Of a DNA stretch of 47,255 nucleotides, positions 13,751-30,312 are shown piece by piece (the stretch's first letter is position 1; each line of letters opens with the position of its first letter). A program made the position numbers and the translations under genes. Origin of the DNA: a virus (lineage: Duplodnaviria > Heunggongvirae > Uroviricota > Caudoviricetes); the IMG/VR virus record IMGVR_UViG_3300042890_003920; one strand, given 5' to 3'. The notes beneath the pieces are model-generated. The model made no database searches. It was not told where the DNA came from and saw only the letters and a program-made list of their open reading frames with translations.

Positions 13751-13781
13751 ATAGTTTAATAATTTTCCTTATCTTTGTAAT

Positions 13782-29349: not shown

Positions 29350-29358
29350 TGAGATATG

Positions 29359-29428
29359 AGGCAGAAAAAGGAATCGAACCTCTGTGTAGGAACTTGCGGT
29401 TCCTCGCCTAACACTCAGCCATTCTGCC
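29359..29428 (-). tRNA. tRNA-Cys(GCA), atypical
   Basis: Acceptor GGCAGAA/TTCTGCC, discriminator U, anticodon stem AGGAA/TTCCT with loop CCGCAAG, T-loop TTCGATT; promoter TATCTTTG at 29441-29448. Confidence 0.85.
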
Positions 29429-29472
29429 ATTATTGTTCTACAAAGATATAACTTTTTTTATATAATAAAAAA

Positions 29473-30108
29473 TTATTTTGTTGTTAAAATTAATCTGTCG
29501 ATTCCAAGCGCAAAACCAACACCACCTTCGTAAGAACCTCCACCACAAATTTGTTTTTGTGCTCCTAATTCTGGACAAGAAATTTCAAACCCTTTACCAC
29601 CAGTATAGTAGTCAAGACCTCTTGTTGCGTCTAAGTTTACTTCATAGTTATCAGTTGCTAACTCAATTAGTTTAGTTGAAATTTCTAACATTTCATCTGT
29701 CATATCTTCAGTTGGGTTGATTACTTCAACTCCAAATTGTGTGAATTGACGGTAACGCCCTGCCTGTGGTTTTTCTCCACGAAAGCATTCTCCAATATAG
29801 AATAACTTAACATTCTTTGTCATTTTAAATGTTTCGTTGGCCAGTTGTTGTACTATGGCAGTGTATTCCGGTGCCAAACAGATGTCTCTGTTACCTCTAT
29901 CGGTAAATGTGTACATCATGTTGTTATTTTCTTCACCTACTTTACTTGCAAATGTTTCAGTTAATTGAATAACTGGGATCATCATTTCTTGATAACCATA
30001 AGATTCCATAATCTCAATCATTTGATTTAGTAATCGTCTTTTGTTTCTAGCGGTTTCACCAAAAACTATTCTTGTTCCTTTGTATGTTTTACTTGTTTTA
30101 ATTTCCAT
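29473..30108 (-). CDS. hisS: Minimal histidyl-tRNA synthetase-like protein (211 aa, catalytic core only)
   Basis: Motif 1 IPVI, motif 2 FRGEKPQAGRYRQFTQFGVE, RGLDYYTG, GGGSY, motif 3 GFALGIDRL followed by stop; start reset to MEIK at 30108. Confidence 0.85.
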   Translation of the reverse strand: MEIKTSKTYKGTRIVFGETARNKRRLLNQMIEIMESYGYQEMMIPVIQLTETFASKVGEENNNMMYTFTDRGNRDICLAPEYTAIVQQLANETFKMTKNVKLFYIGECFRGEKPQAGRYRQFTQFGVEVINPTEDMTDEMLEISTKLIELATDNYEVNLDATRGLDYYTGGKGFEISCPELGAQKQICGGGSYEGGVGFALGIDRLILTTK

Positions 30109-30133
30109 TTTAATAGTATATTTTTTGTTTAAT

Positions 30134-30164
30134 AAAAAAGCCCAGATCATTATAATCTGGGCTT
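30134..30164 (-). terminator. Attenuator terminator upstream of the hisS-like gene
   Basis: AAGCCCAGAT-TATAATG-ATCTGGGCTT followed by a T tract. Confidence 0.9.
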
Positions 30165-30196
30165 ATGTTTAAATTAGCAATTTTTAAGACATATAC

Positions 30197-30253
30197 TTAC
30201 GACCCAGATTTCTCTGTGTGGTGATGTAGTTTATATGTTGTTTTCATTTTCAT
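30197..30253 (-). CDS. His leader peptide MKMKTTYKLHHHTEKSGS
   Basis: CAT-CAC-CAC; its 3' AATCTGGGT can pair with the terminator 5' arm GCCCAGATT; promoter TATATTTG at 30258-30265. Confidence 0.85.
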   Translation of the reverse strand: MKMKTTYKLHHHTEKSGS

Positions 30254-30312
30254 ACTGCAAATATATTACTTTTTATTGTGAATAAAAAATTTGTTTAACT
30301 TTTTCTTGAGAA

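Follow-up and report, generated by a model that had tools for sequence, protein, structure and literature searches.

The DNA analysed here is a 47,255-nucleotide (nt) stretch from a freshwater Caudoviricetes virus (IMG/VR record IMGVR_UViG_3300042890_003920; the window), in which a gene for a minimal histidyl-tRNA synthetase (HisRS) core is preceded by a promoter, a short open reading frame (ORF) with three consecutive histidine (His) codons and an intrinsic terminator. This arrangement is probably a classical ribosome-mediated (leader-peptide) transcription attenuator, which would read the level of charged tRNA-His and gate expression of the mini-HisRS. Attenuation through His codons had been proposed for this gene in an initial annotation of the window, and the present in silico analysis supports the proposal by the recurrence of the module in other phages, by in-frame His codons, by covariation between the paired strands, by folding geometry and by a product that contains no His. 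Directly observed are the sequence elements with their conservation and covariation, the geometry of the folds in thermodynamic terms and the absence of His from the product.

The leader-terminator module and its alternative RNA structures

All coordinates are window positions, and both the attenuator module and the gene that follows it lie on the minus strand. The elements of the module and its borders are as follows.

30313, minus strand: stop of the upstream gene
30265-30258, minus strand: promoter -7 box TATATTTG, of the Bacteroidota sigma-A type TAnnTTTG, read from the sequence
Between this box and the leader ATG at 30253, minus strand: spacer CAGT (4 nt), read from the sequence
30253-30197, minus strand: leader ORF MKMKTTYKLHHHTEKSGS, 18 codons plus the stop codon TAA (30199-30197), read from the sequence
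30226-30218, minus strand: putative regulatory His codons CAT CAC CAC, read from the sequence
30222-30213, minus strand: region 1 (ACC..CAGA), which overlaps His codons 2-3 and can pair with region 2 in the minimum-free-energy fold (an inferred part)
30210-30202, minus strand: region 2, the antiterminator strand AATCTGGGT, formed by the final sense codons of the leader, with its 3' end 2 nt short of the stop codon
30164-30138, minus strand: terminator hairpin (regions 3 and 4), 12 pairs including one G-U, 3-nt loop, -16.6 kcal/mol
30164-30153, 30152-30150 and 30149-30138, minus strand: 5' arm, loop and 3' arm of the terminator, respectively
30131-30139, minus strand: T-run TTTTTTATT of the terminator, with six Ts at 30139-30134
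29473-30108, minus strand: gene for the minimal HisRS core, 211 amino acids (aa; P0001), ATG at 30108 and MEIK start, from Pfam and structure alignment

The initial annotation had listed the promoter, the leader, the terminator with its U-tract and the hisS-like ATG in this order, and each was found on the minus strand where it had been placed. The leader, with its 18 codons, falls below the 20-aa floor of the ORF list and, as had also been pointed out, was missed by it. The description of a 10-bp terminator needs adjustment, the stem having 10-12 bp; the HisRS-like ATG (30108) follows the T-run at a distance of 25 nt. The hairpin itself lies 32 bases from the leader stop. Since His makes up only 0.97% of the proteins of this phage, a run of three His codons in so short an ORF is far beyond chance.

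In Flavobacterium psychrophilum the promoter box is located at -12 to -5 relative to the transcription start site, and leaderless mRNAs account for 5.5% of mRNAs (PMC9723704). On this basis the predicted transcript start in the window is the A of the leader ATG (30253), and the leader ORF is probably translated from a leaderless mRNA. Among 10 box-bearing representatives of related loci (see below) the spacing between box and leader ATG is 4 nt in six, 5 nt in one and 7 nt in one, and in the remaining two (L050 and L153) the box stands 26-27 nt before the leader ATG. The combination of box, 4 nt and ATG also heads full-length genes elsewhere in the window, at 13770 (plus strand), 29219 (minus strand) and 15162 (minus strand), which suggests, at the level of sequence, that leaderless mRNAs are in routine use by this phage. 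In a second class of genes in the window TAnnTTTG stands ~19-25 nt before the ATG. Between the terminator and the mini-HisRS gene this box is absent.

Region 2 is complementary to GCCCAGATT in the 5' arm of the terminator, and the two strands can form a duplex of eight Watson-Crick pairs and one G-U pair (-14.3 kcal/mol). This is the 9-bp antiterminator that the initial annotation had drawn from the last codons of the leader, and it stood up to randomization, since a match as good came from just 2 of 1000 dinucleotide-shuffled leaders (p=0.002). Because the duplex uses the 5' arm of the terminator, the antiterminator helix and the terminator are mutually exclusive. A further pairing, of region 1 with region 2, is present in the minimum-free-energy folds of the window and of the related loci L024, L069, L041, L104 and L042, and is not the minimum-free-energy fold in the truncated RNA of the window. 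The 1:2 hairpin is a candidate anti-antiterminator or pause hairpin, a role with which its conservation (see below) is compatible without being compelling.

The influence of a translating ribosome on these structures was modelled by constraint folding, in which the bases from -15 to +12 around the first A-site base were forced to be unpaired in transcripts ending just after the 5' arm. With this footprint over the first His codons, region 2 paired with the arm in the minimum-free-energy structure, giving the antiterminator; with the footprint over the stop codon, that pairing was gone. The same contrast holds in the window and in L070, L024, L069, L041, L104, L106, L001, L042 and L100, the 10 representatives that have the stop codon at region 2. 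Full-length RNA invariably favoured the terminator over the antiterminator in stability; classical attenuators behave likewise, and in them the choice between the two structures is kinetic.

The His-free HisRS core

The protein encoded downstream of the module, P0001, matches the Pfam family tRNA-synt_His (PF13393) with E=4.6e-26 and aligns to residues 5-140 and 251-316 of the Staphylococcus aureus HisRS structure 1qe0. It contains the class II motifs 2 and 3 together with the His-specific RGLDYY and GGG.Y loops. Both the insertion domain and the C-terminal anticodon-binding domain are absent, there being no counterpart of 1qe0 residues ~141-250 or of those beyond ~320, and the C-terminus is reached five residues after GIDRL. 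Judged by these sequence features, P0001 is a HisRS-derived catalytic core and not a canonical HisRS.

The MEIK start at 30108 is conserved among relatives, while the sequences upstream of it differ. An alternative start at the in-frame ATG 30150, which would give a 225-aa ORF, was rejected, as the loop of the terminator contains this ATG and the N-terminal extension shows no conservation. Gene callers often choose the 30150 start, which yields 225-aa products such as P0002, P0008 and P0009.

P0001 contains no His residue at all. All 41 distinct relatives with an identity of 64% or more lack His as well, as do 121 of 121 close database relatives, and more distant relatives contain 0-7 His. An enzyme without His would still be translatable when His-tRNA-His is short; the composition of the product therefore fits the logic of the attenuator and, as far as sequence can tell, supports a role for the protein in charging tRNA-His.

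The mini-HisRS family comprises 1913 proteins at E<=1e-10. A search of one genome per prokaryotic species returned no close relative, the matches being full-length HisRS proteins, nearly all of them archaeal, at 33-46% identity. When 12 kb of the window was compared with GenBank phages by megablast no match was found, and the more sensitive blastn matched only the gene itself, in the huge-phage records LR745206 and LR756502.

Conservation in related loci and alternative explanations

Conservation within the clade of the window was examined in an alignment of 12 sequences (A1), with the pairing of the terminator and of the antiterminator scored separately. The terminator is 98.6% paired and displays two double compensatory changes. 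The antiterminator is 100% paired in the 12 members and almost invariant, so that the clade alone says nothing about its covariation. The 1:2 hairpin is 95% paired in the same 12 members, maintained only via one-sided changes. At the level of the peptide, the leader is conserved only at its start, at Leu-His-His and at its 3' end, with the ORF kept in relatives; the first two His codons do not vary, and in place of the third H, S or N is found. No nucleotide of region 2 changes, even at third codon positions, whereas most other codons of the leader vary, which is indicative of a constraint on the RNA.

Outside this clade, about 150 loci encoding relatives of the protein were assembled from viral and metagenome contigs, and the 260 nt upstream of each was read. 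At least six sequence-diverged versions of the module precede orthologous genes, in lineages at 60-98% protein identity. Each leader-bearing lineage has a TAnnTTTG box, a short ORF and an intrinsic terminator of its own 26-40 nt before the gene, and the sequences of these elements differ. The leader peptides found are listed below.

Window clade: MKMK(T/N/R)..YKLHH(H/S/N)..KSGS
L069 and L041: ..NVHHHPVMG
L104: ..THFHFHFENLELGVH
L106 and L001 (huge phages, including LR745206): MKHLHTYKIMIDWG and MRALHTYKITIDLG
L042 and L100: MKTMTTHTHHGTH and MNMSTHTHQRTHYM
L050 and L153: ..HKHFS.FHFW.., in the versions MTTVNTHKHF..FHFWH and MSYVSKHKHF..FH
Leaders before orthologous genes, by sequence alone: MKM(I)NNITNVHHHPVMG; MKTLNINTHFHFHFENLELGVH

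His-rich upstream ORFs were thus found before this gene in several diverged phage lineages, where the initial annotation had suggested looking for them. His is the commonest residue of the leaders, accounting for 37 of 254 residues (14.6%) over 14 leader versions against 0.97% in the long ORFs of the window, and with one peptide counted per lineage the enrichment has P<=2e-14. The codons responsible lie in frame: CAY occurs 32 times in the ORF frame as against 11 and 9 times in the other two frames.

The position of the antiterminator strand recurs as well. In 10 of 12 representatives the strand that best complements the 5' arm of the terminator falls at the 3' end of the leader, on or next to the stop codon; in the L050/L153 type this strand lies in the middle of the ORF and the stop codon further downstream. 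Compared with shuffled sequences, the complementarity between leader and arm is significant at p<=0.004 in eight of 11 representatives, which span four lineages, with a value of p=0.04 for L104. From lineage to lineage the terminator arm varies, and the leader strand varies along with it; cognate leader-arm duplexes have a mean of -12.4 kcal/mol and non-cognate ones of -8.2 kcal/mol (permutation p=0.0003, 8 representatives).

Several observations weigh against attenuation by His codons. Many orthologues lie inside operons or behind tRNAs and have no leader, and loss of the T-run or of the complete hairpin is seen in the L027 and L030 types; taken together, these cases imply that the switch is dispensable. 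In L024, a member of the clade of the window, a 1-nt insertion shifts the frame of the leader. With only two or three His codons the lineage of the window is at the low end, and relatives have Ser or Asn in place of the third; for comparison, trpL carries two Trp codons. The leaders of the huge phages contain two His (L106) or one (L001), which weakens the case for His specificity in that lineage. The antiterminator is not significant against shuffles in L042 (p=0.2) and L050 (p=0.11), and within the clade of the window no double compensatory changes were found for either the antiterminator or the 1:2 hairpin. With regard to geometry, region 2 begins 7 nt after the last His codon, so that a ribosome stalled on the third His codon would partly cover it; the invariance of only the first two His codons fits this ribosome geometry as modelled. 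Finally, in several lineages the antiterminator is also the fold adopted by truncated RNA that carries no ribosome, which implies that read-through may be the default for untranslated RNA, unlike the situation in trp. The earlier statement that the antiterminator is free only if the ribosome stalls at HHH was therefore too strong, both because the structure also forms in the ribosome-free truncated transcript and because a stall at the third His codon partly occludes region 2.

Some of these observations would suit a general translation-coupling sensor, an explanation that we regard as unlikely. Here any slowing of the leading ribosome, for instance by host translation shut-off or a ribosome-targeting defence, would free region 2 and allow read-through, and the His codons would be incidental or one input among others. 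The folding geometry works for any stall upstream of region 2, the leaders of L001 and L106 have few His, and the preference of ribosome-free RNA for the antiterminator in several lineages points in the same direction. Such a sensor does not, however, account for a 15-fold, in-frame enrichment of His across leaders that otherwise share little, nor for the placement of the His codons where a stall uncovers region 2, nor for a controlled gene that is a HisRS core and is itself His-free.

The recurrent pairing between the end of the leader and the terminator arm bears on a second explanation, an ordinary leaky terminator or insulator that happens to follow a chance or micropeptide ORF. The hairpin would then serve to stop transcription from upstream, or to close a gene for a small RNA or peptide, with constitutive partial read-through accounting for expression of the HisRS-like gene. 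Phage genomes are full of intergenic terminators, the terminator scan returned four terminator-like sites in 5 kb against 1.6 expected, and in the L027 and L030 types the short ORF persists with no functional terminator behind it. Nevertheless, this explanation is quite unlikely, since it leaves unexplained the complementarity of the ORF 3' end to the terminator arm and the covariation of the two across lineages, the constant position of the strand at the stop codon and the in-frame enrichment of His. Furthermore, in L021, L029 and the L028/L039 type the upstream operon ends in a terminator of its own ahead of the module promoter, which indicates that the module is its own transcription unit, with a second terminator between the promoter and its only gene; for L021 and L029 this position, too, is unaccounted for by a leaky terminator.

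Aminoacyl-tRNA synthetase genes can be controlled through their leaders in other ways, the autoregulation of thrS being one. A leader that acts as RNA alone or by binding a protein or tRNA, and so detects uncharged tRNA-His or the enzyme without translation (T-box-like, or autoregulation by the mini-HisRS via a tRNA-like fold) would be in keeping with such control, which is frequent for these genes, as with the T-boxes of Firmicutes (PMC1262725), and the alternative hairpins would serve it equally; it is very improbable here, given that no Rfam family, T-box included, reaches threshold, that the leader is poorly conserved outside the paired strands, and that translation is indicated by an ATG fixed 4 nt from the box, by the preservation of the ORF and of the position of its stop, and by the in-frame enrichment of His. 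In the Rfam searches neither T-box (RF00230) nor His_leader (RF00514) gave a match at E<=10, and the only matches at this level were sub-threshold and driven by the terminator, the best being Thr_leader with 23.5 bits against a gathering score of 55.

The cassette, its proposed mechanism and known systems

The gene order downstream of the mini-HisRS gene is completed by a tRNA gene.

29358-29448, minus strand: tRNA-Cys(GCA), directly downstream of the mini-HisRS gene, with its own TATCTTTG box at 29448-29441

In L003 and L004 a tRNA-Cys gene lies ~45 nt after the mini-HisRS gene, and in L005 it lies ~1.4 kb downstream. Linkage to a tRNA, for example an adjacent tRNA-His, was considered and rejected, as the neighbouring tRNAs differ between loci, the one here being tRNA-Cys. 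The cassette of promoter, leader, terminator, mini-HisRS and tRNA occurs behind different upstream genes, including those for LamG-like fibre proteins and adenylosuccinate synthetase (L109, L021, L101, L023 and L260-L264), and this distribution in the sequences suggests that it moves or is retained as a unit. Among relatives, sequence similarity begins at ~30277, a point ~12 nt upstream of the box, irrespective of the gene that precedes the cassette. This limit was placed from upstream regions and from contigs in four RNA-labelled public runs; the contigs are those of relatives, are probably partly DNA and were used for this purpose only. Public runs with matching DNA were lake, runoff and estuary metagenomes, and for the leader no RNA run was listed.

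Other neighbours vary with the locus. Genes resembling homing endonucleases flank the mini-HisRS gene: a GIY-YIG/NUMOD1 gene lies downstream on the opposite strand in L262-L264, and in L031, L035, L038 and L040 the upstream ORF appears LAGLIDADG-like, as judged by eye only. At ~400-715 in L008/L116 lies a gene that resembles class I synthetases and has a KMSKS motif; it ends immediately ahead of the mini-HisRS gene, so that shortened synthetase genes are clustered there. In L006, L026, L032 and L112 the mini-HisRS start is immediately preceded, ~100 nt upstream, by a tRNA-like sequence whose features include a TPsiC arm (GGTTCGATTCC), a long extra arm and the 3' end ..CGCCACA; ARAGORN made no tRNA call for it in L006, the only one of the four that was scanned. 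In L001 (LR745206, a 635-kb phage) an extra ORF of ~66 codons is found at 1188-1530, between the leader-terminator module and the mini-HisRS gene.

The favoured explanation, attenuation by His codons, can be set out as a model in which the start site, leader translation, the kinetics and the His dependence are inferred. The trigger suggested in the initial annotation, tRNA attack, is speculative; the lytic lifestyle and the Flavobacterium host assumed there are likewise conjectural, the one sign seen being the Bacteroidota-type promoter box. Transcription would begin from the host-type TAnnTTTG promoter, probably at the A of the leader ATG, to give a leaderless mRNA, and a ribosome would translate the 18-codon leader just behind the polymerase. 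With His-tRNA-His plentiful, the ribosome would reach the TAA and cover AATCTGGGT, the 3:4 terminator would form, and transcription would stop at the T-run 25 nt before the gene. With His-tRNA-His scarce, the ribosome would stall with the first or second His codon in the A site, leaving region 2 to pair with the 5' arm. This pairing would block the terminator and the polymerase would read into the gene, whose His-free product could still be made under the shortage of His-tRNA-His.

In its overall design the module resembles attenuators of the enterobacterial hisL (Rfam His_leader, RF00514) and trpL types, which likewise combine a short ORF close to the promoter, in which cognate codons are clustered, with an intrinsic terminator and a mutually exclusive antiterminator, the 5' strand of which is masked by a ribosome at the stop codon, with the regulatory codons in region 1. 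It differs from hisL in several respects. No covariance-model or sequence similarity to hisL was found, the phage modules have 2-4 His codons whereas hisL has seven consecutive ones, and the gene controlled is synthetase-like whereas hisL controls a biosynthetic operon. In addition, the module is phage-borne, has a Bacteroidota-type promoter and probably a leaderless leader ORF, and its default when untranslated may be read-through.

Classical attenuators also precede the aminoacyl-tRNA synthetase genes pheST of Escherichia coli (with the leader pheM) and trpS and leuS of Streptomyces (PMC1262725). There, as proposed here, a leader peptide couples synthetase expression to charging of the cognate tRNA; those systems are chromosomal, serve full-length enzymes and concern other amino acids, whereas the present one would control a phage-specific, 211-aa, His-free HisRS core. 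The T-boxes of hisS genes in Firmicutes share the tRNA-His charging input, the terminator read-through output and the class of target gene, but they bind the tRNA directly without translation, and T-box features and an Rfam match are absent here. Within the likely host phylum, leader-peptide attenuation signals have been described upstream of amino-acid operons in F. psychrophilum (PMC9723704). They have the same phylum-type promoter and the same presumed mechanism as the phage module, and differ from it in being located on biosynthetic operons of the host.

The literature searched contained no description of an amino-acid-sensing leader-peptide attenuator on a phage or before a phage synthetase gene, in agreement with the earlier remark that leader-peptide attenuators are rarely if ever described in lytic phages. 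What is new is a phage-borne instance of textbook his/trp attenuation. A wider reading, which we offer tentatively, is that the module represents a phage-specific design inherited across many lineages of Bacteroidota phages, with genomes from ~100 kb to >600 kb. Leaderless leaders with cognate codons would sense charged tRNA by stalling and would switch on translation genes of the phage, here the His-free mini-HisRS, in the service of aminoacyl-tRNA homeostasis and possibly against depletion or cleavage of tRNA-His in the host.

If the leaderless start of the leader is correct, ribosome and polymerase would be coupled from codon 1, in a phylum without Shine-Dalgarno initiation. If the attenuator works as proposed, the virus would gauge the charged tRNA-His pool of its host via the host ribosome and answer with a minimal synthetase of its own. 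The attenuator and the conserved absence of His would also constitute regulatory evidence that an uncharacterised, phage-restricted protein family acts on the charging of tRNA-His, a function that is directly testable.
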